Source: a virus
Direction: 5' to 3' (one strand)
Virus record (IMG/VR): IMGVR_UViG_3300033181_000072
Coordinates: 4,279 to 68,278 of that record
DNA length: 64,000 nucleotides
Shown in pieces: positions 14,450 to 58,241 of this stretch. The notes under the pieces are model-generated. The model was not told where the DNA came from. It did no database searches and saw only the letters and a program-made list of their open reading frames with translations. Every line of letters starts with the position of its first letter. The first letter of the stretch is position 1. A program made the translations under genes and the position numbers.

Positions 14450-14551
14450 TTAGACGATCGCTATCGAACGTGATAAAATAGAGGCAATTGAAGAGCGCCG
14501 CGACTGTTTCAGCAGTCCGGCGCCATGGCATCGAGGAATAGGAGTTCCACA

Positions 14552-15241
14552 ATGCAGCCTAATTCTACTACCCTTTTGGACCGAACCTGTCGTGAGTGCG
14601 GCACCGGCTTCACGAGTCCCGTTTGGGAGGTAAAGCGCGGAAGCGGCAACTTTTGCTCCCGTCACTGCGCGCGCATCTGGCAAGCCCGTCAACAATTCAC
14701 GACTGCCGAGACACGATTCTGGGAAAACGTTGAGAAATCCTCGGATGAAGGTTGTTGGCTTTGGACGGCTAATACAACTAGTTACGGCTATGGGCGATTC
14801 CGTTTTCAGGGTCAAGAGGCTCAAGCGCATCGCGTTGCCTGGAAACTTGTCAACGGCCCCATCCCGAAAGGGATGTACGTCTGCCACAACTGTCCAGGTG
14901 GAGATGTTCGGTCCTGTGTTAATCCAGCTCATCTGTTTCTTGGCACACATGCCGATAACATGTCTGATATGGTTCGCAAAGGCCGAAGTCCTTCTGGAAA
15001 GTACCATTGGTCTCACCTGCACTCCGAAAAAATTGTTCGCGGAAAACGACATGGGCGCGCTCGACTGACCGATACAGAAGTCGCTGAGATTCGCGCGTTG
15101 TATGCAAGCGGCGCATTGCGACAATGCCAATTGGCGAGACGGTTCCAAGTAGCTCATTCGACCATACACATGATCATCAGTGGAAAGACGTGGCAAAGCC
15201 TCAGTGCTATCACTCACGTTACTGACCAATCGTCAAAATAG
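14552..15241 (+). CDS. Free-standing HNH homing endonuclease (antisense to late operon)
   Basis: CxxC...CSRHC, GCWLW, AHRVAW, CVNPAHLFLGTHADNMSDM and C-terminal HTH; own TG-TAAAAT -10 and AGGAG SD. Confidence 0.88.
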   Translation: MQPNSTTLLDRTCRECGTGFTSPVWEVKRGSGNFCSRHCARIWQARQQFTTAETRFWENVEKSSDEGCWLWTANTTSYGYGRFRFQGQEAQAHRVAWKLVNGPIPKGMYVCHNCPGGDVRSCVNPAHLFLGTHADNMSDMVRKGRSPSGKYHWSHLHSEKIVRGKRHGRARLTDTEVAEIRALYASGALRQCQLARRFQVAHSTIHMIISGKTWQSLSAITHVTDQSSK

Positions 15242-17057: not shown

Positions 17058-17654
17058 ATGCGTTCTAATCCTATCATCACCAAAGTCTGTCCAAACTGTG
17101 GCGCGATGTTTGTATGGCGAGACACCCCTTCCCGTCAACGTCGATACTGTAGTATCGTTTGCCAGCATGTCGGTCTTCGCAGCCAAGAGGCCGATGTCTG
17201 GAACCGTATCGAACGTGGCAATGGGTGCTGGCCTTGGAAGGGGGCGAGATCCATCCGTGGGGGATACGGCACTTTGAATTACAAAGGACGCCTGTGGCCC
17301 GCACACCGGTTAGTGTGGGCGCTAACACATCCAAACGATCCGCTCCCGGAAGTCGTAATGCATACCTGCGACAATCCTCCCTGCTGCCGTCCTGATCACC
17401 TGATCGCCGGTACCCACTTGCTAAACGTGCATGATAAATGCGCAAAAGGTCGAGCGAACCTTCCCACACCTGAGAAACGCCTACGGGGCATGCAACAGAG
17501 TCTCGCAAAACTTAATGATGACCAGATACGCGAGATACGAGCGCGCTACCTCAACGGTGAGTCTTCCCCGAAGTTAGCCCACGAATACGGCGTGAATCAT
17601 ACGCTCATCTTACGTATTCACCACCATAAAGTATGGGCGCACGTTACCGATTAG
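17058..17654 (+). CDS. Free-standing HNH homing endonuclease (antisense to late operon)
   Basis: CPNC...CSIVC, GCWPW, AHRLVW, HTCDNPPCCRPDHL...NVHD and C-terminal HTH; GGAGG SD. Confidence 0.88.
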   Translation: MRSNPIITKVCPNCGAMFVWRDTPSRQRRYCSIVCQHVGLRSQEADVWNRIERGNGCWPWKGARSIRGGYGTLNYKGRLWPAHRLVWALTHPNDPLPEVVMHTCDNPPCCRPDHLIAGTHLLNVHDKCAKGRANLPTPEKRLRGMQQSLAKLNDDQIREIRARYLNGESSPKLAHEYGVNHTLILRIHHHKVWAHVTD

Positions 17655-44964: not shown

Positions 44965-45297
44965 TCACGCGCATGCTGCTCGATAGCGTGCAAGCTGTTC
45001 CATCCAGAACGTGTGGCGGTCGGCAGTCCGTCCGATGTGCTCCTGTGCGTCCTCGTCTTCGTGACACCGTCCGGTCCCTGGTGCCTGCTGGATCGCCCGT
45101 TCCCACTCACCGAGCGAGACGTCGATCTGTGCCGTGATAATGTCCATGGTTTGCGTGACGTGGTCATCCACGAGTATCACTCCCTCCACTATCGTCATTA
45201 CCGTCGTACGTATCGCTCCCCCTCCCGCCGCACCATCGGCCCGTCCGTCAGTTCGCTCATGCCGTACATCTCCCGCAGCGAGATCAGCATCCGTCAC
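44965..45297 (-). CDS. Hypothetical protein (start uncertain)
   Basis: Co-oriented early ORF. Confidence 0.35.
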   Translation of the reverse strand: MTDADLAAGDVRHERTDGRADGAAGGGAIRTTVMTIVEGVILVDDHVTQTMDIITAQIDVSLGEWERAIQQAPGTGRCHEDEDAQEHIGRTADRHTFWMEQLARYRAACA

Positions 45298-45530
45298 TCC
45301 CTTACCGCCTCCTCCACGTGCACCTGTGCCACGGCTAACGCTCCCATCGCCTCGTCACTGTCGCCCCAGTCATCGGGCAAGCCCAGTGCGCGGGTCAGTT
45401 GTTGCCGCGCATGCCAAAGCTGTGCCGTCCATTCCTGTCCAGGATAAACAGCACGATGGCTGAAATTAACCCGCTCCAACGCATACACCTGTGCCGCCGA
45501 AAACACGGCCACGCGCTCGTCGTGTGTCAC
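45294..45530 (-). CDS. Small hypothetical protein, paralog of 43676-43921
   Basis: GTG start overlapping ASCH stop; paralog motif. Confidence 0.6.
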   Translation of the reverse strand: MTHDERVAVFSAAQVYALERVNFSHRAVYPGQEWTAQLWHARQQLTRALGLPDDWGDSDEAMGALAVAQVHVEEAVRE

Positions 45531-46003
45531 AGCAACCTCCCTTGCCCCGCGTTCACCGTCATCAGTGCCGCTTCCGGCTCCCACTCCCACAATCCTAAAC
45601 TGCCCCTTGCTGGTACAGGTTCGTCGAACCGTGTGGCGTTCCGCAACAACCACATCCAGCGGCCCGGTGAATAGTCCCCCAGCGCCAACTCTTGCTCAGA
45701 CAGTAAGCTCCCACCGAACAGTTGCGGGCGCCCGAGTCGCACCGTCGTCAGGTAGTCCACCAGCTCTACCGTGCCGAGCACCACGCCTCGTGGGAGGTCG
45801 TGTGGCATGGCGATTCCGATGCTGGCGAGCAACGTGCGGTGTGGCTCCTCGTAGCACAACTCCACAGCCGCCGCAGGCATACCCTTGCTGGCGTGAATGG
45901 CCAGCAGACCGGTGTAGCGGTGTCGCCAGCTGCGCGTCTCAATCTGCTTCATGCCATGGACGACGTACGACGCCCAGGGCTGGGAAAGCGACAATGCCCT
46001 CAT
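45527..46003 (-). CDS. ASCH domain protein
   Basis: MRALSLSQPWAS...GMKQIETRSW, GVVLGTVEL and PVPARGSLGLW. Confidence 0.9.
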   Translation of the reverse strand: MRALSLSQPWASYVVHGMKQIETRSWRHRYTGLLAIHASKGMPAAAVELCYEEPHRTLLASIGIAMPHDLPRGVVLGTVELVDYLTTVRLGRPQLFGGSLLSEQELALGDYSPGRWMWLLRNATRFDEPVPARGSLGLWEWEPEAALMTVNAGQGRLL

Positions 46004-46122
46004 GGCTGCACTGCTTTGTTGGCCAAGGCAAGCAGGATGTCACCATGGCAGTCCTCGTCTGGCCGTCGTTTGGCGGTCTGCAAGCTGGTGTAGCCCTTGC
46101 ACCAACATGCCCAAGGTTTCAT
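46000..46122 (-). pseudogene. Orphaned original C-terminus of the DUF4326 gene (40-aa mini-ORF)
   Basis: MKPWACWCKGYTSLQTAKRRPDEDCHGDILLALAN duplicates CWCKGYTS...CHGDVL of 46772-47107. Confidence 0.75.
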
Positions 46123-46775
46123 CGCTGCGTCGCTATTGCATTGGTGGCCATCGTGTCTCTTCGTGCGCGTAGTCTAATTGCCGCACCCGACGATTCTCTT
46201 GCCTGGCGCTGTGCCAGCCTTTTATGGCAACGCCGACACAGCGTGCCATTGACTCCGAACCGCTCCCCGGAAATCCGGACTGGCGACCCAGTCGGGACAT
46301 CCCTGCGGCCATCAGGATCACCGCACACGACGCACGGTGGCCAGGACTTTTTACGGCGGGCTTCGGTCATTCGTGTGACACTGCCGTGTATCCGATCTGG
46401 TCCCTGCGCAGCGTCAAATCGGTAGTGTTCCCGGTGCGTATGAAAGAGCACGAGGTTGGAAAGGTAACTGTGCGTCCGGACTCCATCTCGGTGCCCAATC
46501 TCCTTACCCCGAATCGCCTCTATTCCCCAGACCTTGATCGCGACCAATCGGTGAGTGCGGACCGGGCGTTGCACATCACGACTGTAGGCCAGGTAGACGA
46601 CCGGATAGCCGGTATTCCCAGGTGATCCCTTGAGCCCCCTGCCCCGACGAAGGTTCGTCACGACACCGGTCTCCACGTCCACGTCGTAGTGTCCGTGGTC
46701 CAACATCCAACGGCCATACTCGTCCAGAGTCAGTCGCTGCATGGCTTCCTCATCTGTTCGGAGTGTCATCATCAT
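46119..46775 (-). CDS. HNH homing endonuclease
   Basis: GYPVVYL, RTHRLVA, EIGHRDGVRTHSYLSNL; C-terminal CxxC...CxxC. Confidence 0.8.
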   Translation of the reverse strand: MMMTLRTDEEAMQRLTLDEYGRWMLDHGHYDVDVETGVVTNLRRGRGLKGSPGNTGYPVVYLAYSRDVQRPVRTHRLVAIKVWGIEAIRGKEIGHRDGVRTHSYLSNLVLFHTHREHYRFDAAQGPDRIHGSVTRMTEARRKKSWPPCVVCGDPDGRRDVPTGSPVRISGERFGVNGTLCRRCHKRLAQRQARESSGAAIRLRARRDTMATNAIATQR

Positions 46776-47107
46776 GATCGTTCCTTTCGATTCAACAGAT
46801 CCGACAAGACATCACCGTGGCACGGCTTCCCTTCCCGGCACTTGCCAGTGCGCCGCGAGGTGTAACCCTTACACCAGCAGCAAATGTGTTTTCCGAGCAA
46901 CGGCGCTAACCAGTCGGGCTCGCGCTCTAATCGTTGGACCGCGTAGATCCTGAAGTCGTCGAGCGACAGCCGCGGGTTCTTCCACGGCGTGTCGGGGTAG
47001 GTGACTGGATTGCCGTCAACAAACTGCCGGAACGCCCGGCCGATGTAGACGGCGTCCGGGGGGCGGAGAGAATCATTGACGTGCCAGACGCGTGGACCAT
47101 CGCTCAT
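46772..47107 (-). CDS. DUF4326-family protein
   Basis: VYIGR, WKNP, LLGKHICCWC and PCHGDVL motifs. Confidence 0.8.
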   Translation of the reverse strand: MSDGPRVWHVNDSLRPPDAVYIGRAFRQFVDGNPVTYPDTPWKNPRLSLDDFRIYAVQRLEREPDWLAPLLGKHICCWCKGYTSRRTGKCREGKPCHGDVLSDLLNRKERS

Positions 47108-47147
47108 GACGTCACCCGCCGTGCATGCATCATCGTGGTACCGTCGA

Positions 47148-47720
47148 TTAGTAAGTGGTGTCATCATCGTCTTCGACGTCCAGACCATCCTCGATCTTGG
47201 CATCGTCGAGATCTGACAGTTCGTCGGCAATGCGCACAGTCGGCACAGTCGGCAGTTCCCAGCGGTGTACCGGTTCAGGTTTATTCCCTCGTGCGACGGC
47301 CCGGGCTGCTGCCTCGGACACGGGGGTCAGTCCATACACGCTGGTTGGCGCGTAATACTGCGTGGCTACCCACGCGATGTCGGCTCCGTCAAGGGTCGTT
47401 CCCCGGTAGCGTGGCACGGCATAGCGCAGCCAGCACACCCGTACAAACGGGAGGGAGGCGGGCACAACCCGGAGCAGACGGGGGTCTGTCGTGCAGCCGA
47501 TCTGGACAATGAGCCGTCCATCCGGGCCGACGAGTCGGGGGAAGTGCTGAGCCACATCGTGAAACAGCGCGACAGGATCATCGGTCCACTCGGCCGTCGG
47601 AGTTGCACCCGGCCAGGGCGGATCGGTCACCATCGCGTCGGCGTGGTCGATATGCGGCAGGAGCTCGCGACTATCGCCCCAGTATAGAGTGACGGTATCG
47701 GACTGGTAGTAGGGCCTCAC
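47148..47720 (-). pseudogene. Truncated N6A/N4C DNA methyltransferase fused to an unrelated phage-protein C-terminus
   Basis: LYWGDSRELL and VTDPPW (motif IV) present; SAM-binding FxGxG motif absent; C-terminal half unrelated. Confidence 0.6.
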
Positions 47721-47953
47721 CGCATCGCCTCCTCGAACAATGCCCGCTGCCGTGCTCTCTGCACACCGGCCGTTGCTGCCCCCACGTCAATTTGACCAGG
47801 CCGCACGAGATCCGGCGCAGGTGGCTGGTGCGCTCGCCAGTTGTCCCACGTGCGACAGGCGTCGTTGATGCAGAGCGCGATAAACTGCTCCTTGCTCTGG
47901 CCAGGATGCGGCTGGCGTTGTGCCGGTACATCAGCGATCCAGAGCGTGGTCAT
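47717..47953 (-). CDS. Small hypothetical protein
   Basis: 4-nt overlaps on both sides. Confidence 0.45.
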   Translation of the reverse strand: MTTLWIADVPAQRQPHPGQSKEQFIALCINDACRTWDNWRAHQPPAPDLVRPGQIDVGAATAGVQRARQRALFEEAMR

Positions 47954-48690
47954 TCACCGACCATCCGAAGACGCGGCGTCTCGGCATGCCGCGCAATCAG
48001 TCGTTGCCGTTCCTGTTCCGGCAGCTCCCGCCAGCACGGAAGCGCTTCAAGTGCGGCCGACGCCCGGCGATGCATCGGCAGTGCGTCCGCGCGTGCTCGT
48101 AGTGCCGCTTCTCCCTCCTCCGCCCACTGCTGGTACCCAATCGCCCATTCCCGCTCGAATGTTGGTGACAGGACAGGTCTTGCCATTCCCGGTACCGGTC
48201 GGTCCGATGTCGGCAACGTACTGCGTTCCCGGGCCGTTGCGATGGTCTCGGTAAGATCGCGTCCGAGCAACTGCTGTCGGTACGCTTCGTACGCCTTGCT
48301 GAACTGCGACCGCAACACACCAATCGTGTCGATATCCCAATCGCAGATCGTCACCCACCCCAGGGACGTGACCGCGTGTGCCGTCACCGGGTTCGTGAAC
48401 TCGGGTATGCCGTAGCGACCAACGCACTTGAGTTGCTGTCGGACTTCTTCCCACGCCACCTCGGGTGGCCCGATGCCAAGGGCTTCGTCCAGCGCCAGGG
48501 AGCGCACCTCAGCAACAGCCGGGAAGAACGTCGCCGTGCGTACTGCCCGCTTGGCTGCATTGAATACGGCCTGGGGCGGCAGGTCACCCAGTCCAGCTGC
48601 GAAGGCCGTCACGGTCTCAGCTTCGATCGTTTTGTCTGGCCAGGCTGCTTTGAGCAGGGTGAGCACCTGTGCGATGCCTTGCTCGGTCAC
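47950..48690 (-). CDS. Helicase loader/inhibitor-like replication protein (G39P-like)
   Basis: AQVLTLLKAAWP...DLP...FFPAVAEVR motif; follows initiator. Confidence 0.65.
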   Translation of the reverse strand: MTEQGIAQVLTLLKAAWPDKTIEAETVTAFAAGLGDLPPQAVFNAAKRAVRTATFFPAVAEVRSLALDEALGIGPPEVAWEEVRQQLKCVGRYGIPEFTNPVTAHAVTSLGWVTICDWDIDTIGVLRSQFSKAYEAYRQQLLGRDLTETIATARERSTLPTSDRPVPGMARPVLSPTFEREWAIGYQQWAEEGEAALRARADALPMHRRASAALEALPCWRELPEQERQRLIARHAETPRLRMVGE

Positions 48691-49736
48691 GTTGAACCTC
48701 CCATCCGTGCTAATTCTTGAATCGACAAACCGCGCCCGCTGCGTCCTGGGCTGGCTCGCGCTGGCTGCTTTGATGTCACGCCGTGCTTCCAGGCTTCGTA
48801 GGCCGGAATGCGCTGGCAGATTGTGGTCAACGAGAGATTTGAGAGCATCCACGCGTCGCCCCAGTCGCCAGTTGCGGCTGCCACGTATGCCTCCGCGATC
48901 AGCGCTGGCTCAGCGGAACAGCTTTTGACCGCCGCAGCGTCTCGGGAGGTGTGGTGCAGCGTGATGCCAGCATTTGCCACGGCGTCGAGCACGTCCTGAA
49001 AGCGAGAGGGCTTGCGAATGGGCAACACCGACGGGCGGTCGCTTGGTGCGGGGGGTGGCGCGGCAGTGGGGGGCGTCTTACGGTCCTGCTCTGACGCTGG
49101 TTTTTGTGCTTTGCCCGGTACTGGCTCGTTTTGGAGCGGTGTTTCCTCGACGGACGGTGCGGGACGTTGTGGCGTTTCTGCGGGCGCCGCCGCAGGCGGA
49201 ACGTCCTCCACCGTAGGTGGTACAGGTTCACAGTAGACGGTAGACGGTTTAACGGTTAACGGTAGACGGTTAACGGTTAAGGGTCGTACAAGTACGGTAC
49301 TTGTATGAGAGTCGTCTGGTACAAGTACCGTACTTGTACCAGACGACTCTGGATGCGATTGCGCTATACTCTCGTCATCGTCAGACGTCGTCGGTGGCAC
49401 CTGCACGTACCCCTCGGGTGCAGGAATGGTACTGGCCTTCTCATTTTTGTTTGGATACTGGTGGCGAGTAAAGTTGGTGACCTGGATATACCGTACGTCT
49501 CCTGCCGCATAGCGAATGATGAACCCGCGCTGGCTGAGCTCTGTCAGCAATCGATCTATGTCCGTGTCATCATAGGGAAGGATCTCTGCCTTGATCCGTC
49601 GCTGCCGTTCCTCTAAACGACCAGCGCGATCTGCGATGCACCACAATCCCTGGAAGAGCAGACGTCCCAGGGGTTCGACTTCTGCGAGGCTATCGTTCGT
49701 GAAAAATCCCGGCTTCAGCGAGCGAGTACGCGCCAT
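48687..49736 (-). CDS. Phage replication initiator / replisome organiser
   Basis: MARTRSLKPGFFTND...RLLFQGLWCIADRAGRL wHTH; contains iteron-like repeats. Confidence 0.85.
   Translation of the reverse strand: MARTRSLKPGFFTNDSLAEVEPLGRLLFQGLWCIADRAGRLEERQRRIKAEILPYDDTDIDRLLTELSQRGFIIRYAAGDVRYIQVTNFTRHQYPNKNEKASTIPAPEGYVQVPPTTSDDDESIAQSHPESSGTSTVLVPDDSHTSTVLVRPLTVNRLPLTVKPSTVYCEPVPPTVEDVPPAAAPAETPQRPAPSVEETPLQNEPVPGKAQKPASEQDRKTPPTAAPPPAPSDRPSVLPIRKPSRFQDVLDAVANAGITLHHTSRDAAAVKSCSAEPALIAEAYVAAATGDWGDAWMLSNLSLTTICQRIPAYEAWKHGVTSKQPARASPGRSGRGLSIQELARMGGST
49233..49350. repeat. Candidate phage replication origin inside initiator gene
   Basis: Seven GTWRACG-type units (49233-49280), TACAAGTAC-G-GTACTTGTA (49287-49305) and a 43-bp palindrome with 21-bp arms (49308-49350). 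Confidence 0.7.
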
Positions 49737-49977
49737 TAGTGTGGCCCTCGCCGACAGGACATGTTTGCCGTGTCACCTATTGAGCAGAATTTACCCCAGC
49801 CGTAGCGATGCTCGGACGGTGTCAACTCGAACGAAGCGCCGCACTGCGTACATACGTGTGCCACACGTCTCTTCGGCATGGGCATCTATATAAACTCCTG
49901 CATAAAACGGTTCACGTCTGGGTCTGCGGACTTCAGTAAGTGCTGGGGCGCATCTGCCTGCCATGCCTTCACGATCG

Positions 49978-50415
49978 TCAACATCCGTCCTTCGTTCCTT
50001 CATTCATTGCTGTCATGACGCCACGCCCTTCGCGTCTCCATCGGTCTGGACCCAGTGTGAATGATTCCCACAACCCTGCGTGGGTGAACGTGAAGCACGT
50101 CCAGGTCGGACCATCGCCTTCCAGCGTCCAGAACTCGTAGCGCGGCAGCGCAGGATGCGGCAAGAGCTCGACCGCACGTCTCCACTTTGGATCAGGTCGT
50201 GTGCCCGCGGTGGCCTTCACCTGCACGAGTTTCGCGTCATGGGTGCCGAGCGCGAGCAGGTCAAACAGGCCAAAGATGTCCCGACCGTAGGGGATACGTT
50301 CGCCGTTGGCATCCACTTCAGCAGCGTGGCCCGCCAGATGCACGACGTAGCCCATCAGGCGCAGCTCCCGCGCGGCCAGTTCCTCGACATCGCGCCCGAG
50401 AGCAAAGGTGCTCAT
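49978..50415 (-). CDS. PD-(D/E)xK nuclease, Hjc-like resolvase
   Basis: GRDVEELAA...LFDLLAL...LVQVK motif. Confidence 0.7.
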   Translation of the reverse strand: MSTFALGRDVEELAARELRLMGYVVHLAGHAAEVDANGERIPYGRDIFGLFDLLALGTHDAKLVQVKATAGTRPDPKWRRAVELLPHPALPRYEFWTLEGDGPTWTCFTFTHAGLWESFTLGPDRWRREGRGVMTAMNEGTKDGC

Positions 50416-51287
50416 TCGGTGCCGTTGCCGTCGGGGAATTGGTCCCACGTGCGGCCGTCGAGCAGCCGATCTTGACCGGACCGGAACGCATTGCCCTGCT
50501 TGTGGAAGTAGGCGACTCCCTTGTCCTGGCACTGGTCGCGGATGTCGCGAAACCAGTCAGGATCAGCCGGGCGCCGACGTGGCCCGGACTCACCACCGGT
50601 GATGACCCAATCGATACCGGTCAGGTTCATGTTCACCAGTGGTCCGAGGAGCGGTTCACACGACAAAAAGCGCACGGCTGCGGGGATCGTCCGCAGCACA
50701 TCGATCCGTGAGGTGTACGCCTGGCTCTCCACGCTGGTGCCGATCCAGATGTTGGGGCGCGGCCACAGCCACCAGAGCGACACGTCTGGCGTGGGCCGAG
50801 AGAAGCGCCGCAGGTGTTGATCCTGGGGATGGCGCTCAGCCAGGCCCTCCATAGCACCGTAGACACCGTGCGGCGTACAGGTCGTGAGGAAGTCTGCCAG
50901 CCGCTGTGGGCGCTTCGTCAGCACCTGAAACGTGTGACTGGGGCACATGGCCATCACCCCGAAGATCTGCCGCAATTGCGCGTCGGTGACCTGCTCATGG
51001 GCGATATCGGTCATGGAGCAGACGAAGATCTTCCGCGCTCCACCCCAGTGCAACGGTTTGAGCAGTGCCTTGTCGTCTAGCCGCAGCGTGTCGACCCCCA
51101 CCACGTAGCGTGGTCCCCCATAGCGGACGTTGAGCGCCTCGGCATAACATGAGGCGCATCCCGGACTGATACGGGTACATGTCCAGTTACCGACCGTGCC
51201 CCGGAGCGGGTTCCACGTTGCACCTGGTGTCGTTGTGCCATCGGGATGATGCGTGTGTGTCCACTCAATCGACGTCTTCTCAGCCAC
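50412..51287 (-). CDS. Phage Gp37/Gp68 (DUF5131) radical-SAM-like protein
   Basis: TSIEWT, CTRISPGCASCYA, FVCSMTD, LTKRP, FLSCEPLLG and WVITGGESG. Confidence 0.9.
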   Translation of the reverse strand: MAEKTSIEWTHTHHPDGTTTPGATWNPLRGTVGNWTCTRISPGCASCYAEALNVRYGGPRYVVGVDTLRLDDKALLKPLHWGGARKIFVCSMTDIAHEQVTDAQLRQIFGVMAMCPSHTFQVLTKRPQRLADFLTTCTPHGVYGAMEGLAERHPQDQHLRRFSRPTPDVSLWWLWPRPNIWIGTSVESQAYTSRIDVLRTIPAAVRFLSCEPLLGPLVNMNLTGIDWVITGGESGPRRRPADPDWFRDIRDQCQDKGVAYFHKQGNAFRSGQDRLLDGRTWDQFPDGNGTE

Positions 51288-52104
51288 CGCCCCACCCCCA
51301 GCGGAGGACGGTGTATGCGGGGTAGCGCACTCCCCAGTCCCACGCCTGATCGCACCTTGGTACCCAGAGATCCAGGGTATAGGGCGCACTCCCCCGATCT
51401 TCGACAATCACGTCGCCCCATCCTTCGACACGAACAATGGAACCGAGCGGCAGCCACCACGCGCCACCGGCAGCCCCGAGATGTGTCCAATTGCCATCGG
51501 CCATATACCCGTGATCGCAAAACGCGGTAATTCTCCCGTCATCTGCCAGTGCTGGCCTCGCGGTCGGGAGAAGCAGTGCGAGTGCTGCCAGTATCGCGAC
51601 AGCCACGTGTTTCCAATGGGTGCGGTTACTTATCATCGCCACCGCAGATCGGCTTACGCCATACGATGCCGCGATGTCTTTCTGCCGCTCCCCGGCTTCG
51701 AGTCTGACAAGGATGTCCCGAACGTTGTCTTCGGTGAGCCTTGCCCCGGGCAAGGCGGACCCGCGCGGCATCCTTCCCTTTTGGACCTTGTCCAAGGCAT
51801 TGTCGGTTCGTGTCCCGAGAAATAGGTGCTCGACATTGATGCACCGTGGGTTGTCGCAACGATGGAGGATGCAGCCACCGGGAGGAATCTCGCCGTTCAC
51901 CTGTTGCCAAGCCACCCGATGGGCATACGACAACTTGTGACGAATGTTGATGACCCCGTACCCGTTTTCGTTGACGTACCCCGTCCATTCGATGCATCCG
52001 GACGGTACAGCCGTACCCTGAGCGGCTATGCGTTCCCGGATCTCATGCGGCGTGGCCGGTGGTTGTTTTACGTATTGACCATACTCATCTCGTATTAGCT
52101 GCAT
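51280..52104 (-). CDS. HNH endonuclease fused in-frame to a signal peptide and 3D (MltA-like) domain
   Basis: GCIEWTG, AHRVAW, HRCDNPRCINVEHL; then VAILAALALLLP..ALA/DD; GSIVRVEGWG...VEDRG...LDLW (3D). Confidence 0.8.
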   Translation of the reverse strand: MQLIRDEYGQYVKQPPATPHEIRERIAAQGTAVPSGCIEWTGYVNENGYGVINIRHKLSYAHRVAWQQVNGEIPPGGCILHRCDNPRCINVEHLFLGTRTDNALDKVQKGRMPRGSALPGARLTEDNVRDILVRLEAGERQKDIAASYGVSRSAVAMISNRTHWKHVAVAILAALALLLPTARPALADDGRITAFCDHGYMADGNWTHLGAAGGAWWLPLGSIVRVEGWGDVIVEDRGSAPYTLDLWVPRCDQAWDWGVRYPAYTVLRWGWGGG

Positions 52105-52211
52105 TGATGATTCCCTCCGTTGTGAGACGCGGTCACTCTGCCATCGTCAGCATGTGCGGGCGTGGGCACCAGTAGACCAACAAGGCACAGTGCGGTGAGT
52201 AGCTTCCTCAT
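52095..52211 (-). pseudogene. Orphaned original N-terminus (signal peptide) of the 3D-domain gene
   Basis: MRKLLTALCLVGLLVPTPAHADDGRVTA matches ALADDGRITAF inside 51280-52104. Confidence 0.8.
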
Positions 52212-52255
52212 GGTTCACTGGCCTCGGCTGCCCGTGCCCGCTGTACCCACTGCTC

Positions 52256-52534
52256 GTGCCCCAGCCGAGCTTCCTGGCGTGTCGTGTAACGTTCCTGGCT
52301 GTCGGACAATGGACCGCCGAACACCATGGTCTCGTAGAGGATGGGCGCACCGTTACCATCAAATCTGTGGTCGATCGAGAGAAAGACGGTGGACACATGC
52401 ACGTCGTCGGTGAGTTCCGTGTAGCAGGTCATCCGTGCGATGTCACTCTGCGCCGTCTCGAACCACTGCGACCATGTCGCAAAGTCTGCCAGCACGGGGT
52501 GCTTCTTGTCGTCAAGGATGTAATACATGGTCAT
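52256..52534 (-). CDS. Hypothetical phage protein
   Basis: VSTVFLSIDH...LYETMVFGG...RYTT pattern seen in phage early genes. Confidence 0.55.
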
Positions 52535-52625
52535 CGGACCAGCCCTGACCGCACCATGCAGCGGTCGCACAACAATCCTGGTCGCACCAGCCGGGGCATA
52601 GCCGTCCAGCCGCATCGTGTCGGCA

Positions 52626-53522
52626 TCAAATGGCCTCCCATGTCACTTCGCCAGTCTGGTGCGACACAATGGATGTGCCATCGCCGGAGATTTCCTCGCC
52701 ATTGAGCGCTGCCTGATAGAGCCGTTGCATCTGATCCGCCGTCAGCGTCTTACCGCTGTCCATGCCAAACCGCAACTTGATGTAGCGCCTGGCCCAATCC
52801 TGCACACTCTTCTCCTCAGCGCCCTGGCTCTTCCAGGCTTCGAGGATGTCCTTCCACCCGATGTCGTTGCCTTGTGCCCCATTGGCAGGTTTCGGCGGTG
52901 GTGGCGGCACCACACTGAGTTTTGCGGGAGCCGGTGGAGTGGGAGCGGGAGCATTGCGGGGACCAGTCGGGCGAGGCGCTTGTTGCTGTTGGGGAGGTCG
53001 TGCCTGCGTTGCCGGAGGCGTCTGGGTAGCCCCGGTCCCGAGCATGTCCGCCTTGTCATACAGAGAATTTCCAAAGGCGTTGCCGAACGTCCTGGCACAG
53101 CGCTTGAGACCATCGGACACCGCCTCTTTCGCTGCTTTTTCGAACGACTCGGGCCGTGCGCTGTCGGGTCCATTCGTCCGACTATAGGAGACGATCCCAA
53201 AACCGACGTCTTCACGATCGACGCGCTCGCTCGTGGCAGACCATATCCACAAGTGGACATCTGCCTCGTACCAGAGCGCGTCCCCTTCGCGGCACCGCTG
53301 GCGTGATTTGACCGCGTATCCCCAGCGCCCGAAACCGAAGATCTCATTGAGCATATCGATGACGTCGTGGGACTCCACGTACGACAGCATCTTGCCGCCG
53401 CCGCTGTCGTCGCCGTATCCCTTGCGTTGCTTGACGCGGGCCGCGTCAAGGGGCTTTTTCAAGCGCTCCACCTGGGCTTCCGTGAAGATGTCGATGTCCC
53501 TGGCCGTACTTTGCACTACCAC
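52626..53522 (-). CDS. Rad52/Rad22-family single-strand annealing recombinase (Sak-like)
   Basis: LSYVESHDVIDMLNEIFGFGRW, EDVGFG and AAKEAVSDGLKRCARTFGNAFGNSLYD. Confidence 0.92.
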   Translation of the reverse strand: MVVQSTARDIDIFTEAQVERLKKPLDAARVKQRKGYGDDSGGGKMLSYVESHDVIDMLNEIFGFGRWGYAVKSRQRCREGDALWYEADVHLWIWSATSERVDREDVGFGIVSYSRTNGPDSARPESFEKAAKEAVSDGLKRCARTFGNAFGNSLYDKADMLGTGATQTPPATQARPPQQQQAPRPTGPRNAPAPTPPAPAKLSVVPPPPPKPANGAQGNDIGWKDILEAWKSQGAEEKSVQDWARRYIKLRFGMDSGKTLTADQMQRLYQAALNGEEISGDGTSIVSHQTGEVTWEAI

Positions 53523-53652
53523 GGCTGTATCCCTCCTATCCCGAACGCGAGTACCAGAGCGCTGTACGCGAGCCAGAGCGCGTAGACGACGAGCATGGCG
53601 GACACGGCGATGCCGATGAGATTGAGTGCGACTGATTCGTGTTCGCTCATGC

Positions 53653-53916
53653 TCATCCCTTCTTGTAGTCACGGAACATCTGGAGCATCAATGCCGTTTG
53701 CTCTGGCGTGGCGCTGATGGCAGACTGCAACCACTCGACAAGAAAAGCGTCCGCCTCGGCTGATGCCGCGCAGTCGTAGAGCATGCTCGCCATCTCTCTT
53801 GCCTTGCTGGGTGTGATGGTGATCATGTGCTCCCCGATTACGACCGTGACCAGCGGTTGTCTGGTCTTAGCGCCGTAGACGGATCGGACCTCGAAGCGTT
53901 CGTCAATATGACTCAT
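53653..53916 (-). CDS. Hypothetical phage protein
   Basis: 87-aa coupled ORF. Confidence 0.5.
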   Translation of the reverse strand: MSHIDERFEVRSVYGAKTRQPLVTVVIGEHMITITPSKAREMASMLYDCAASAEADAFLVEWLQSAISATPEQTALMLQMFRDYKKG

Positions 53917-54134
53917 GGCCACACCATCGGCGCGATGTGTCGTACCAGCCAGGTGAGCACCCACGCATCTATCCAGAGTTGGGTGGCGGCGATCATCGCG
54001 ATAACGAGGACCGCCCATCGTGGCGACCTGGTGGCGCCTGTTTGCCGTTCTCGGTTGCGAAAGCGCCGCGGCATGCGGTCCCTCTCCCATTCCTCAGCAA
54101 CCAGGGGTGGGTTCGTGCGGATGATGTGATTCAT
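53913..54134 (-). CDS. Small membrane protein
   Basis: C-terminal TM segment. Confidence 0.4.
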   Translation of the reverse strand: MNHIIRTNPPLVAEEWERDRMPRRFRNRERQTGATRSPRWAVLVIAMIAATQLWIDAWVLTWLVRHIAPMVWP

Positions 54135-54328
54135 GCGCGTTGCCCGTCTTTTTCGGTGAATGCGTGCAGGTCGGCGAGAGCTTCCGCAAGCAGATCCTCA
54201 ATGAGCCCGACGTCTGAGTTGGTGGTCGGCATCCGGCCTTTTCGGCCGATGCGTAACATCTGCATCAGGCGCAGCACGCGTTTCTCGCACGCGGTGCGCC
54301 GCTCGATGGTGGTGTCGATGTATTTCAT
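54131..54328 (-). CDS. Small hypothetical protein
   Basis: ATGA-coupled. Confidence 0.4.
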   Translation of the reverse strand: MKYIDTTIERRTACEKRVLRLMQMLRIGRKGRMPTTNSDVGLIEDLLAEALADLHAFTEKDGQRA

Positions 54329-54615
54329 CGCAGCACCTCGCCGGTCGCCATGTCGTAGCTCCGCTCAGGCGTCGTGGTCAGCGTCGAGCGCACGCCACTG
54401 AACTCCATTGCCGACTGACGCGGCATCGCATCGCCGAGTTTGATGAACTCGGCTTTTGCGAGCTTCATCCCTTCCTCCAGTTCGCCGAGGTGGAAGTCGA
54501 TGAACTCCTGGGAGCTGTCGTAGATCGTGTGCGTCTTGGTGCCACCCAGCGCGGAGTTTGCCCGGTCCTTGAGAATCGTGATCGCTGCTTTGAGGTCGTG
54601 CAGTTCGTCTTCCAT
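54325..54615 (-). CDS. Small hypothetical protein
   Basis: Coupled early ORF. Confidence 0.45.
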   Translation of the reverse strand: MEDELHDLKAAITILKDRANSALGGTKTHTIYDSSQEFIDFHLGELEEGMKLAKAEFIKLGDAMPRQSAMEFSGVRSTLTTTPERSYDMATGEVLR

Positions 54616-54812
54616 CAGTGCTCGATCTTCTCCAAACGTTCAATCGCTACCAATGCGGGTGCAGGGATGCCGCTCTCGTGTGACCACAGCCCGCTTGCCT
54701 GGACGTGCTCGCGCTCGTCATCGGCGACATAGATCGTGTCGAGCATACCGACCAGTCCAGGTGTGCTCTTACTGCGGACGTGGTCGCCGGGGTGCAGGTT
54801 CGGGCACATCAC
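54615..54812 (-). CDS. Small SH3-like hypothetical protein
   Basis: LHPGDHVRSK...G pattern. Confidence 0.4.
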   Translation of the reverse strand: MMCPNLHPGDHVRSKSTPGLVGMLDTIYVADDEREHVQASGLWSHESGIPAPALVAIERLEKIEH

Positions 54813-55030
54813 TCCTGCCCCTCTCCAGCGGCACGCTTGCAGCGCAGGCAGGGGAAGCCGTTGGCTGGGCACTCGTCGAACACCCGCGCCCAGCGTCCTC
54901 TTGGGGGAGTCTGGCCACACAGAGAACGCCGTGTGGCGGGATCGTCGGGGAACAGTGGCGTCGCAGCGGGGACCAAATGCCAGTGATTGACTCCGACAAT
55001 GGCAACGACGCGGTACAGACGAGCGCTCAT
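54809..55030 (-). CDS. Small Cys/His hypothetical protein
   Basis: HWH...SLCG...CLRC; overlaps neighbours by 4 nt. Confidence 0.4.
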   Translation of the reverse strand: MSARLYRVVAIVGVNHWHLVPAATPLFPDDPATRRSLCGQTPPRGRWARVFDECPANGFPCLRCKRAAGEGQE

Positions 55031-55212
55031 GGCCATACCGTCTCTCCCAGAGCCAAGACGATCAGGGTATACCCGAGCCATATACAGAAGGCAGCCAGTA
55101 CGCCACCCGCGGCCAGTCCCAGCAGCTGCAAGAAGTTCAATCGTGTGTCGTCGTATCGCAGCAGGTCGTCGTCGTCCTCAGGGCCCAGGGTCATCGGTAC
55201 GCCTAGTTTCAT
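55027..55212 (-). CDS. Small membrane protein
   Basis: Single TM segment. Confidence 0.4.
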   Translation of the reverse strand: MKLGVPMTLGPEDDDDLLRYDDTRLNFLQLLGLAAGGVLAAFCIWLGYTLIVLALGETVWP

Positions 55213-55562
55213 GACTGCTCCCTCTCGTCCCGCCCCAGATACCCGCGATCCTCGCCGTGCAGGTACTCCCCAATGGCGAGTGCAATCGCCACGGCCAAGG
55301 CAATGGCCACGAGGCTCACGACGGTCAGGAACCTGCGGAGGTAGGTGGAGACGTTCATCGAGTCGCCGCCTGTACAGGCGCTACAGACGCCGCGTGTCCG
55401 CGGCGCAAGTACGGTCCACATCTGCCAGCCCCCGAGCGGCACGTACCCGCAGCGTGCACGGTCATGCGGCCTCCCAATGTGCCACACGTGATCATCGTCA
55501 CCGATGACGTACATCCGTTCCGCTACGGGCTGCTGCTGTGTGTTTGACTCTGCTCGTCTCAC
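55209..55562 (-). CDS. Hypothetical protein with C-terminal TM
   Basis: Coupled ORF. Confidence 0.4.
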   Translation of the reverse strand: MRRAESNTQQQPVAERMYVIGDDDHVWHIGRPHDRARCGYVPLGGWQMWTVLAPRTRGVCSACTGGDSMNVSTYLRRFLTVVSLVAIALAVAIALAIGEYLHGEDRGYLGRDEREQS

Positions 55563-55918
55563 ACGAGGCTCCTCTCAATATGCTGCTGCGCGTACACCTC
55601 GACATCGACGCGGCGTAAGCGCACCGTCCGTCCCACACGCACCACGGGCAGTTCCCGGCGGGAGATGAGTTGATTGACCAGTGAGGGCGAGACACGGAGG
55701 TGATCCGCAGCCTCAACTTTGGTCATCAGCAGCGGACCAGCCGTCGCTGCTGCTTTCCCTTGCAGTTGTGCTGCGAGTTCCTCCCGCACGACCTCACGCA
55801 CCGCCGTGACGAACGTCGTGAGTTGTGCCTGCGCTGCCATCTCCGCCATGCTCGCCACCTCTGACACGCGCTGTTGTGGTGTCAGGTTGGGGAGGCGTGT
55901 CAGGCGTACGTCGTTCAT
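55559..55918 (-). CDS. Excisionase-like helix-turn-helix DNA-binding protein
   Basis: LLMTKVEAADHLRVSPSLVNQLISRRELPVVRVGRTVRL (HTH_17 pattern). Confidence 0.85.
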   Translation of the reverse strand: MNDVRLTRLPNLTPQQRVSEVASMAEMAAQAQLTTFVTAVREVVREELAAQLQGKAAATAGPLLMTKVEAADHLRVSPSLVNQLISRRELPVVRVGRTVRLRRVDVEVYAQQHIERSLV

Positions 55919-56235
55919 GACTTGCCCTGCTCGATTTCTTCCAGCAGTGCCAGAATCTCTGCAACCTTGCTATTCCAGCGCTCCATTGCCTCGGTGGAGA
56001 CTCTGTCGCGCTCTAACTTTTGCAGGTAGGCATGGGTACGCGATATCTCCAAGTCGATATCCGACGGGGTCTTGTCGATGTACACCTTCCCGAGTCCCGT
56101 AGGGGGCCCGTACGCCTGCGCCTGCGATGAGTCTGTTAACTCGCCACTAATCAGCGCCTTCTCTCGCAGCAACCGCTTGAGTGTTGTGAGGTGATCAGCG
56201 GGTGATGTCTCCGGTACACCGTCGGGTGTTGTCAT
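55915..56235 (-). CDS. Hypothetical helical protein
   Basis: GGAGG SD, start MTTPDG. Confidence 0.45.
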   Translation of the reverse strand: MTTPDGVPETSPADHLTTLKRLLREKALISGELTDSSQAQAYGPPTGLGKVYIDKTPSDIDLEISRTHAYLQKLERDRVSTEAMERWNSKVAEILALLEEIEQGKS

Positions 56236-56705
56236 CGGGTCTCCTCCCGGCACGTGAAGCCCAGCACCCGGAGCGCGTCGGTATGCTGAGCAATCGCCGT
56301 CTGCTGTGCGACGATCACGGCAGCGCGGCGAGCGGTGTAGCCGTACATCACCTGGCGCATGTCCAGGTTCGCAATGGCGGCGTGCAGGTGCCAGATCGCA
56401 GTGACGTGGAGAGCTGCGGCCGGGTGGTTGCACGAGTGGCGGTAGTACTGGCTGCCGCACACAAGGTGCGTTTCGGTGGCGATGTGCTTGCCGTACGGCT
56501 CCCCGATAACCGGCTCGTAGACGCGAATGGTGTGCATGAGTGGTTGCTCACTCGCGCTGGCGAGGAGCACGTCGTGTGTGGCGGTCAGCGTGCCGTCCGG
56601 CTCCTCTTGCCAGCTATGGGAGTCGATACGGGCTTCGAGGAGCGTCTGGGGCTGGCGCTTGGAGTGAGGCGAAGATGCCAGTGCCTTCGTGTGGTAGACT
56701 GTCAT
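56232..56705 (-). CDS. SWIM-like zinc-finger protein
   Basis: HLVCGSQYYRHSCNH metal-binding cluster. Confidence 0.45.
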   Translation of the reverse strand: MTVYHTKALASSPHSKRQPQTLLEARIDSHSWQEEPDGTLTATHDVLLASASEQPLMHTIRVYEPVIGEPYGKHIATETHLVCGSQYYRHSCNHPAAALHVTAIWHLHAAIANLDMRQVMYGYTARRAAVIVAQQTAIAQHTDALRVLGFTCREETR

Positions 56706-56723
56706 AGGTAGCAGTCCTTTCCG

Positions 56724-56752
56724 GGGCCGCGTGACGGCAAATCACGCGGCCC
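56724..56752. terminator. Perfect 11-bp GC-rich hairpin (terminator or processing site)
   Basis: GGGCCGCGTGA-N7-TCACGCGGCCC between Cro-like gene and early operon. Confidence 0.5.
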
Positions 56753-56893
56753 TTTGCAATTCCTCAAGCAGCCCGTTGGCTGCCTGAAGTTCCTTCCTTG
56801 CCGCCGCAATGAGCACCAGTGCGCGGGGCGACGTTCGCGCCATGCGCTCCAACTCCATCAGGTGCGCCGAGGCCACCTCTTGGTGCTGAAGCG

Positions 56894-57139
56894 CTAGCCT
56901 GGTGGGGGCCGGGCGGTCTCAAGGGCTCCTGGAGTCGCTGCCGCATCCCCACTATCCACGGGATCGGGAAGCGACAAGCGAACCGATAGGGGCATGGAGC
57001 GATACAGTCCGATGGCGCGGCGCATGATGGTCGAGAAGGGCGTGCCCTGATCACGCGCTTCTGACTCGATCCACTCGCGCATTGATCGCGGGATCGTGAA
57101 GCTGGTGACCATGTTTTCGGGCCTGACTTTGCCGCCCAC
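56894..57139 (-). CDS. Cro-like ribbon-helix-helix regulator
   Basis: VTSFTIPRSMREWIESEARDQGTPFSTIMRRAI; divergent from repressor. Confidence 0.7.
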   Translation of the reverse strand: MGGKVRPENMVTSFTIPRSMREWIESEARDQGTPFSTIMRRAIGLYRSMPLSVRLSLPDPVDSGDAAATPGALETARPPPG

Positions 57140-57154
57140 CGGTGCCTCCGCAAC

Positions 57155-57250
57155 TGCTTATCACTACAAACACTATACAGATGTTTGGCGTAATAAGCAA
57201 TAGCTAAAGTGACGAGTTTTGAAAATTCGCCATGTTCGCAGTAATAAGCA
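57155..57250. promoter_or_regulatory. Lysis-lysogeny switch operators
   Basis: GT[A/G]ATAAGCA three times (57155-64 inverted, 57190-99, 57241-50) between divergent regulators. Confidence 0.6.
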
Positions 57251-57276
57251 GGGCTGACGCGGCGTACACTTCCAGC

Positions 57277-57738
57277 ATGGAGAAGCAAACGTTCGCGGGT
57301 TATGTCCAAGCACGGCGTTGGGAGCTGAAACTGTCCCAGGACGGGCTAGCAAAGGCTGCTGGAAAGCCGATCACGAGGGGCTATCTTGGTCAGTTGGAGC
57401 GCGGTTTTATCAAGCGACCAGGGCGCGAGCATCTGGCCGCACTGGCGCGTGGTTTGGATGTGTCCGTAGAGGACCTGGTGCGAGCGATGGGCATGCTCCC
57501 TGGAGCCGCACACGAAACAGGGGTGGATGATGATTTACCACATCTGAACGACCGCGTACGGATCGGTCTTCGGCGTGCACGGACCCAGATGCCTGATGAT
57601 GACTACGAGCGCCTCGTTGCGACCATCGAGAGCCAGGTCGAGGCAGCGCTGAAGAGCGTTGAAGACGGAACGCTCGAACCTTCGGTGACATCCCGGCACG
57701 TCGATAAGATCCTCGACAAGCACCTGGGGCACCACTGA
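57277..57738 (+). CDS. XRE-family phage repressor (ImmR-like)
   Basis: RRWELKLSQDGLAKAAG...TRGYLGQLERG HTH; no S24 peptidase domain. Confidence 0.88.
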   Translation: MEKQTFAGYVQARRWELKLSQDGLAKAAGKPITRGYLGQLERGFIKRPGREHLAALARGLDVSVEDLVRAMGMLPGAAHETGVDDDLPHLNDRVRIGLRRARTQMPDDDYERLVATIESQVEAALKSVEDGTLEPSVTSRHVDKILDKHLGHH

Positions 57739-57782
57739 ACGCATATCAGAGAAGCAAAGGCAGGCCGAATCCCTATGAAGAG

Positions 57783-58241
57783 TTGGCAAAGCAACTCCGC
57801 GTGGAGATGCCGATGCCCACATCGCGCAAGTTGCGAGCGTGGCGCGACTGGCTCTGGGACTGCTTTCGCGTCGTTCTGGTTGCACCGGAACTGCCAGAGC
57901 ACTTCGACGGAACGGGCATCTTCCTTGGCAGCGAGGATTGCCGTGGGATCATCCTACTTCGCCGTGGGACAGAGCATGCTATCTGGACGTTGGTCCATGA
58001 GCTGGGGCATATCCTTACCGAGCGCTGTTATGACGTTGACGCCGCACAGGACGGGCTGCAATGGCAGACGACAGGTGACGAGCAGGCCGCCGACGAGTTC
58101 GCCTGTTGTTTCATCATTGATGAATACGAGCTACTGGAGTTTATGGGTGAGGGGCGAACCGTGAGACAGTTTGCACAATATCTGAAGGTTCCAGTGAGCG
58201 CAGTGCTACTCAGGTCGCGGTTGATGGGATTGATGGTGTAG
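57783..58241 (+). CDS. immA: ImmA/IrrE-family metallopeptidase (anti-repressor)
   Basis: TLVHELGH zinc motif, EQAADEFA; adjacent to repressor. Confidence 0.88.
   Translation: MAKQLRVEMPMPTSRKLRAWRDWLWDCFRVVLVAPELPEHFDGTGIFLGSEDCRGIILLRRGTEHAIWTLVHELGHILTERCYDVDAAQDGLQWQTTGDEQAADEFACCFIIDEYELLEFMGEGRTVRQFAQYLKVPVSAVLLRSRLMGLMV

Follow-up and report, generated by a model that had tools for sequence, protein, structure and literature searches.

The stretch of virus DNA analysed here (the window) covers 64,000 nucleotides (nt), positions 4,279 to 68,278 of the 70,282-bp IMG/VR virus record IMGVR_UViG_3300033181_000072. On its minus strand lies an open reading frame (ORF) of 274 codons (52104-51280) in which an HNH_3 homing-endonuclease module is followed by a leader resembling a signal peptide, and then by a C-terminal domain. 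From WKHV, the natural C-terminus of the nuclease, the frame runs on without a break into the hydrophobic core of this leader, which is the second of two copies: the first lies orphaned just upstream, in a 38-codon ORF. On balance, we think that a free-standing HNH_3 gene probably invaded the 5' end of a gene for a Sec-exported, 3D-like protein, and that both proteins may now be made as one preprotein cut by a leader peptidase. Coordinates of the features are collected in Table 1.

The fusion reading frame

The nuclease part is matched by Pfam HNH_3 (PF13392) at residues 60-103 (E 2.4e-15) and by PHROG HNH families with E down to 8e-31. In a 25-sequence alignment it keeps all 18 of the 18 invariant family columns. 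Its C-terminal helix-turn-helix region, residues 117-167, aligns with 24 relatives; direct matches to HTH_23 and KORA are weak (E about 0.01). Most of these 24 stand-alone HNH_3 relatives (150-270 amino acids, aa) end 0-3 residues after the motif W-(K/R)-H-(V/I), corresponding to fusion residues 164-167; the two other HNH_3 paralogues encoded by the phage genome end at the same point, with stop codons. The nuclease of the fusion has therefore lost its stop and been joined in frame to what follows: the hydrophobic core of the second leader begins exactly where the stand-alone relatives end. No solved structure with a sequence match to the nuclease part was found, and a single-sequence AlphaFold model of the whole fusion was unusable, with a predicted local distance difference test (pLDDT) score of 40.

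Two kinds of spliced element were considered and rejected. For an intron, Rfam gave no match at E <= 1 and the ribozyme core was not found; for an intein, a Hint/intein domain was absent in the Pfam scan.

Beyond the nuclease the ORF reads ...WKH-VAVAILAALALLLPTARPALA-DDGRITAFCDHG..., which bears out an earlier note on this DNA in placing a second leader and a C-terminal domain in frame behind the HNH domain. The second leader consists of a 13-residue h-region plus ALA. An n-region of the Met-Arg-Lys type is missing and is replaced by the tail of the nuclease (R161, K165, H166). The signal-peptidase I site is predicted at ALA|DD, between 51544 and 51543; here and below, n-region, h-region and cleavage site of leaders were judged by eye. 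One low-depth contig, from run X5, has T instead of G on the plus strand at 51584, corresponding to Ala174 -> Glu in the core of the second leader. This may be a sequencing error or a true variant.

The exported part had been described as a 3D domain. As a direct Pfam assignment this did not hold, the window protein reaching 13.5 bits against a PF06725 gathering score of 23.8, but it is upheld by profile relatives with PF06725 and by the double-psi beta-barrel (DPBB) fold. Searched with a profile, a set of 1.84 billion representatives yielded 2407 relatives of the domain. In those tested, PF06725 (3D, E down to 2e-14) is combined with LysM or CBM5_12, and the family is therefore extracytoplasmic. 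An alignment-based AlphaFold model (pLDDT 93) consists of an N-terminal helix, the leader, and a barrel. The best Foldseek matches to it are DPBB proteins, namely Streptomyces papain inhibitor (SPI), PA4485, expansins, MltA and YuiC, with probability up to 1.0 and a template-modelling (TM) score of about 0.55, but with E of only 3e-3 to 0.1. We call the domain 3D-like, or DPBB, because the Pfam 3D score of the window protein is below threshold. It keeps every invariant column of its family. The ratio of non-synonymous to synonymous substitution rates (dN/dS) against P0001, a chromosomal homologue, is 0.08; as synonymous sites are saturated, this value shows only long-term constraint on the domain and nothing since the fusion.

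Duplicated gene start and origin of the insertion

The 38-codon ORF upstream of the nuclease is translated as MRKLLTALCLVGLLVPTPAHA-DDGRVTA-SHNGGNHQCS and a stop, in agreement with the earlier reading of a leader followed by DDGRVTA. Its leader has MRK as n-region, LLTALCLVGLLV (12 hydrophobic residues) as h-region and PTPAHA as c-region, with positions -3/-1 within AHA. The same ORF was called as a gene in an independent assembly. It does not drift to its stop, as had been thought: the tail is the insert's own sequence and contains the Shine-Dalgarno motif GGAGGG of the HNH gene. The orphan ORF is translationally coupled on both sides, to the upstream gene and to the nuclease; coupling to the nuclease follows from the position of its TAA, 7 nt beyond the HNH ATG.

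The two leader copies belong to a direct repeat of 35 nt, 74% identical, spaced by 605 nt and closing at ACCGCGT in both copies. The earlier note had recognised ACCGCGT at both junctions and an insert of about 605 bp between them; these stand, and the repeat is now longer. It had also taken the two leaders to be related, and they do align, over the 35 nt and, at the protein level, with 9/11 identities between orphan and post-HNH segment (BLASTP, E 1e-4 for a single comparison). ACC|GCG|T stands in one and the same codon phase in the two copies, so that deletion of the 605 nt leaves a single open frame of 108 codons, a gene length typical of the family.

It seems to us very improbable that there was no insertion at all, the 38-codon ORF being an independent gene for a secreted peptide, or else a remnant of tandem 3D paralogues with the nuclease between them. 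Small secreted-peptide genes do occur in phages, and this ORF is intact and coupled to its neighbours. However, its homology to 3D genes consists of the leader and exactly the first seven mature residues, and stops at the codon phase where the second copy runs on into the domain; its tail is the ribosome-binding region of the nuclease; and excision of the 605 nt restores a family-typical gene.

Uninterrupted counterparts of the gene exist. HNH-free homologues of 109-114 aa, with the arrangement leader-(D/T)G.(I/V)TA-(Y/F)CD, are found in phage contexts (contigs L003, L045 and L046) and on a chromosome (L001/L032). Two of them, P0002 (109 aa) and P0001 (111 aa), each with 80% identity in the mature part, came from a word-indexed search with the post-HNH query; their leaders run straight into DDGRITAYCD or DTGVVTAYCD. 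P0002 lies on a phage-like contig and is coupled to its upstream gene by a 4-nt overlap. P0001 lies on a chromosome, with genes for citrate synthase and riboflavin beside it, and its samples are those that yielded the phage. L045 and L046, two further phage contigs, hold versions of the 114-aa class with ordinary leaders. The earlier note had called for an HNH-free homologue with an MRKLL-type leader joined to FCDHG; a leader of the MRRLL- or VNRLL-type joined directly to DDGRITA-YCD is present in P0001, P0002, L045 and L046. An HNH domain was absent from all 10 of the 10 longer profile relatives scanned, and no other HNH-3D fusion was present among the 150 best of the 2407 profile matches. 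Judging from these sequences, the 3D-like gene is normally uninterrupted.

Two of these homologues deserve a description of their own. The P0001 gene, at L001:10001-10336 (= L032:2932-3267), has 76.7% DNA identity to the phage gene, with the similarity setting in immediately behind the ACCGCGT junction; P0001 may be the host's version of this 3D gene. At L045:2914-3959, an uninterrupted 114-aa leader and 3D gene stands behind a C5 cytosine methylase gene, and about 240 nt downstream there is a 154-aa HNH gene of a different type (HH...N...H).

The layout of the locus can be written A-HEG-A', where HEG is the homing-endonuclease gene and A and A' are the two copies of the gene start. In the proposed history, A (the first leader and seven mature codons) would have been severed from its gene and would persist as the 38-codon ORF, bridging the upstream gene to the nuclease start, and A' would be the diverged second copy behind the nuclease, continuous with the gene body. 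We infer a donor phage with a homeologous 3D gene immediately downstream of the nuclease gene. The recipient 3D gene would have been cut by this nuclease directly behind its leader, at ACCGCGT|TTTGCGAT or close to it. The end on the side of the gene body could then have invaded the donor and copied back through the donor leader and, beyond it, the nuclease. Rejoining of the far end without homology would have duplicated the gene end and left the recipient leader, up to the cut, as the orphan. Hybrids of genes with mobile ORFs in fungal mitochondria have been accounted for in the same way.

By analogy with the mitochondrial hybrids discussed below, the first leader would be the resident one and the second the import. 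Both copies are equally distant from P0002 over DDGR(I/V)TA (15/21 nt). The second leader had been described earlier as a recoded replacement. That there are two diverged copies is correct. 3D genes of different genomes have 70-77% nt identity, a range that includes the 74% between the leader copies, and because the divergence of the copies equals that between genomes, an imported homeologous gene end is a simpler explanation than designed recoding.

A related arrangement is found at the DUF4326 gene of the same window. The 218-aa HNH ORF beside it matches PHROG HNH families (E 3e-8), and the 40-codon mini-ORF behind this HNH ORF reads ...CWCKGYTS...CHGDILLAL, compared with ...CCWCKGYTS...CHGDVLSDLL at the end of DUF4326. 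The ATG of the mini-ORF overlaps the HNH stop, and its own stop overlaps the start of the next gene. The parallel that had been drawn between the two loci therefore holds for a duplicated gene end flanking an HNH gene, with the refinement that at DUF4326 it is the 3' end. On its sequence, the DUF4326 locus is a 3'-end duplicated-gene-end hybrid, like the mitochondrial cases. At both loci, the orphan pieces may stay open because the overlapping chain of stops and starts is thereby kept intact.

Production of the two proteins

If the locus is expressed as a fusion, one 274-aa preprotein would be made from the strong ribosome-binding site of the nuclease. The internal leader would insert in the N-in/C-out orientation and signal peptidase I would cut after ALA187. 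The 87-aa domain would be released outside the cell, and the nuclease would stay on the cytoplasmic side, attached to the leader remnant. A leader peptidase would thus replace the role that splicing plays in introns and inteins. We favour translation as a fusion followed by leader-peptidase cleavage, with roughly even confidence in this step.

Similar fusions, which support this route, are present in unrelated phage DNA. In P0108 (298 aa) and P0276 (303 aa), an HNH_3 enzyme precedes a type IV pilin in the same reading frame, with the junctions ...SWRTV-SQSG|FTLIEL... and ...SWKTV-QLG|FTLIEL.... In both, the nuclease stands in place of the short prepilin leader, and the prepilin-peptidase site retains Gly(-1) and Phe(+1). 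As the two proteins are only 50% identical overall, the HNH-pilin fusion has outlived much divergence. On L047, the contig of P0276, the start codons ATG, GTG and TTG are all absent between the nuclease end and the cleavage site, so any functional pilin encoded there must be produced as part of the fusion. Among the 120 best nuclease relatives, a nuclease directly followed by a leader-like hydrophobic stretch occurs only in P0108, P0276 and the window protein. A search for an HNH-free relative of the pilin phage gave a single relative, L050, without a pilin gene, and a search of the accessible literature gave no report of a homing endonuclease fused to a signal or prepilin leader.

The earlier note had proposed internal initiation at GTG 51606 as one way of restoring the secreted protein. 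The insertion history would be the same, the exported protein would start at this GTG (or at ATG 51636), and read-through from the nuclease would be incidental. A leader starting at the GTG would have 21 residues, as many as the orphan's, and the homologue P0002 likewise starts with GTG; one starting at the ATG would have a charged n-region (MISNRTHWKH). Nevertheless, we consider internal initiation unlikely. Anti-Shine-Dalgarno pairing amounts to -10.0 kcal/mol at the nuclease start but to -3.3 at GTG 51606 and -5.1 at ATG 51636 (spacing about 2 nt), whereas neighbouring real starts are at about -10. There is no upstream stop codon for termination-reinitiation, the link between nearly every other pair of operon genes. 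The leader beginning at GTG 51606 contains no Lys or Arg, leaving its n-region uncharged, and the pilin parallel on L047 has no internal start codon at all.

We likewise give a small chance to the fusion being a recent neutral or mildly harmful accident, in which the nuclease stop and the leader start were lost and one or both halves are non-functional and will decay. Such an event would fit the usual gain-and-loss cycle of homing-endonuclease genes, and the 3D gene is an accessory gene. The fusion is confined to one clonal lineage, with no second example among the 150 best profile matches, and the low-depth variant at 51584 would put Glu into the leader core. Against this, the invariant residues of the nuclease family are all kept, the 3D domain retains all its invariant columns and has the low dN/dS given above, and in the second leader the hydrophobic core is clean and an A-x-A site is preserved. 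Moreover, the comparable HNH-pilin fusion persisted through about 50% sequence divergence.

Several points weigh against a cleaved preprotein arising from an insertion. The GTG stands exactly at the start of the second leader. It would be unusual for a Sec substrate to have a folded, zinc-binding domain of 167 residues ahead of a 13-residue hydrophobic core. Since cleavage by signal peptidase I takes place on the membrane's outer face, the nuclease would remain tethered to the membrane if the leader remnant were not degraded. The carriers all come from a single clonal lineage, and the fusion at this locus may therefore be a young accident. Finally, IMG/VR yielded no empty allele or sister phage in searches with the 3D protein alone, a degenerate junction pattern and the exact reconstructed junction, and metagenome contigs likewise yielded no isogenic empty allele; for this reason the polarity of the event and the cleavage site are matters of inference. 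The upstream gene has relatives of no more than 52% identity, and these lack a 3D gene. Over 49800-54000, contigs of four rock-metagenome runs have the HNH-containing form only, and one contig joint, from 51032 to 52603, has too little support to be of use (side 23 nt, depth 2).

Genomic setting and relation to known systems

The same phage DNA, at least 99.97% identical, is present on contigs of up to 138 kb in several rock metagenomes. The fusion is carried by seven contigs, all at least 99.97% identical, and one clonal lineage accounts for all its known carriers. An assembly error was ruled out, the fusion protein being identical in all seven contigs.

The locus lies within a long minus-strand early operon, in the order Rad52-like gene, 135-aa gene, 38-codon ORF, 274-codon ORF, DUF5131 ... 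DUF4326, second HNH gene, ASCH-like gene. In this operon (45280-58104, minus strand) nearly all neighbours overlap by 1-10 nt, mostly as ATGA or GTGA, and the orphan gene pieces beside both HNH genes keep this overlap chain. No promoter or terminator was found inside the locus. The guanine + cytosine (GC) content of the insert is 0.58 compared with 0.61-0.64 in the flanks, which is not decisive. A blastn search of 50,697 phage records with a 1.5-kb query gave no match to the phage DNA.

Elsewhere in the window, the two other HNH_3 paralogues are free-standing genes on the plus strand, at 14525-15241 and 17058-17654. Their products, of 238 and 198 aa, have N-terminal CxxC motifs like those of zinc ribbons. 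The genes run antisense to the tail or fibre genes of the minus strand between which they lie, and have a GC content of 0.52-0.54 compared with 0.61 for the genome.

Table 1 Features of the fusion locus, its counterpart at DUF4326 and a pilin fusion
Feature	Position	Strand	Remarks
Upstream gene, 135 aa, family unrecognised	52208..52615	-	TGA overlaps ATG of orphan ORF (ATGA)
Orphan 38-codon ORF	52095..52211	-	Leader + DDGRVTA + 10-codon tail supplied by insert
Left junction ACCGCGT, codons T-A + 1 nt	52127..52133	-	3D-gene homology ends here
Shine-Dalgarno GGAGGG	52113..52118	-	8 nt before HNH ATG (52104); duplex energy -10.0 kcal/mol
HNH_3 + helix-turn-helix homing-endonuclease module, residues 1-167	51604..52104	-	Ends at WKHV, stop codon absent
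Second leader VAVAILAALALLLPTARPALA, residues 167-187	51544..51606	-	Helix in model; GTG 51606 is candidate internal start
Mature exported domain, 87 aa, DDGRITAFCD...RWGWGGG + stop	51280..51543	-	Double-psi beta-barrel / 3D-like fold
Right junction ACCGCGT	51522..51528	-	Same codon phase as left junction, 605 nt away
DUF5131 gene	50412..51287	-	GTG start overlaps fusion ORF end by 8 nt; Shine-Dalgarno pairing -9.7 kcal/mol
DUF4326 gene, 218-aa HNH ORF (46775-46119), 40-codon mini-ORF (46122-46000)	46000..47230	-	Mini-ORF repeats DUF4326 C-terminus
P0276 HNH-pilin fusion	L047:4001-4912		Phage-like contig with NinG

To our knowledge, homing-endonuclease genes are thought to survive within genes only by means of self-splicing introns or inteins, and otherwise to live between genes. 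We tentatively suggest, as a possibility we rate below even, that they can also live unspliced in genes for exported proteins, as an extension of the leader, the two products being separated by signal peptidase I or prepilin peptidase. If this is true, it would be a third, proteolytic route beside introns and inteins, and the invaded allele would be protected from the nuclease by its duplicated, diverged leader. Together, the window locus, its DUF4326 twin and the HNH-pilin fusions suggest two further tricks available to phages: a spare gene end, so far documented mainly in fungal mitochondria, and a cleavable leader as point of separation. A wider set of sites would then be open to homing-endonuclease invasion. 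Some of the "odd fusion" and "orphan mini-ORF" gene calls in phage genomes would be explained, and the locus would be a natural case of a functional signal peptide preceded by a large cytoplasmic domain.

Among known systems, the free-standing homing-endonuclease genes of phages (T4 seg/mob, I-HmuI-like HNH_3) share with the window locus the combination of HNH_3 and helix-turn-helix, and the presence of several copies per genome. Placement in an operon and an own ribosome-binding site are also common to both, and homing with co-conversion of flanking markers is to be expected (PMC2790892, PMC10448857). Unlike the window locus, those genes occupy intergenic positions, or else divide a gene into two parts, each translated separately. 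We know of no report of one as an in-frame, N-terminal extension of a leader, or with a duplicated 5' gene end.

The ShiLan element in actinophage methylase genes is, like the present one, a splicing-free HNH inside a phage gene for which the production of both products is open (PMC11855218). There, however, the HNH lies in another frame and is tolerated as a loop of the host protein, whereas here it is in frame, N-terminal and followed by a cleavable leader. Cleavage behind a cytoplasmic domain has its own precedent in viral polyproteins: at the flavivirus capsid-anchor/prM boundary, host signal peptidase cuts an internal signal behind a cytoplasmic nucleic-acid-binding domain and thereby releases an exported protein. 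The window locus differs in that the flavivirus case concerns the eukaryotic endoplasmic reticulum and evolved polyproteins, without a homing element.

The closest likeness is to hybrids formed by mobile endonuclease ORFs (mORFs) in fungal mitochondria. An endonuclease ORF with a duplicated gene end has been described for atp6 of Allomyces macrogynus and for atp6, atp9, cox2 and nad3 of Glomus (PMC3630166, citing Paquin et al. 1994); the mobile ORF brings a foreign C-terminus for the gene, and the native C-terminus is left behind (PMC3630166). As in the phage locus, an endonuclease ORF sits in the end of a host gene, a diverged duplicate is contiguous with the gene and the displaced end is orphaned. 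Identity between duplicates is 64-81% in the mORF hybrids, compared with 74% here, and in both systems there is no intron or intein, the mitochondrial endonuclease often being in phase with the host gene. The hybrids involve the 3' end, mitochondria and GIY-YIG or LAGLIDADG enzymes; the phage locus involves the 5' end, a prophage-like phage and HNH_3. Only in the phage is the duplicated piece a signal peptide, and with it comes a ready-made site at which proteolysis would separate the nuclease from the host protein. A phage version at the 5' end, in which the nuclease stands in frame before a cleavable leader, is new, and its nearest known counterpart is the mitochondrial mORF hybrid.

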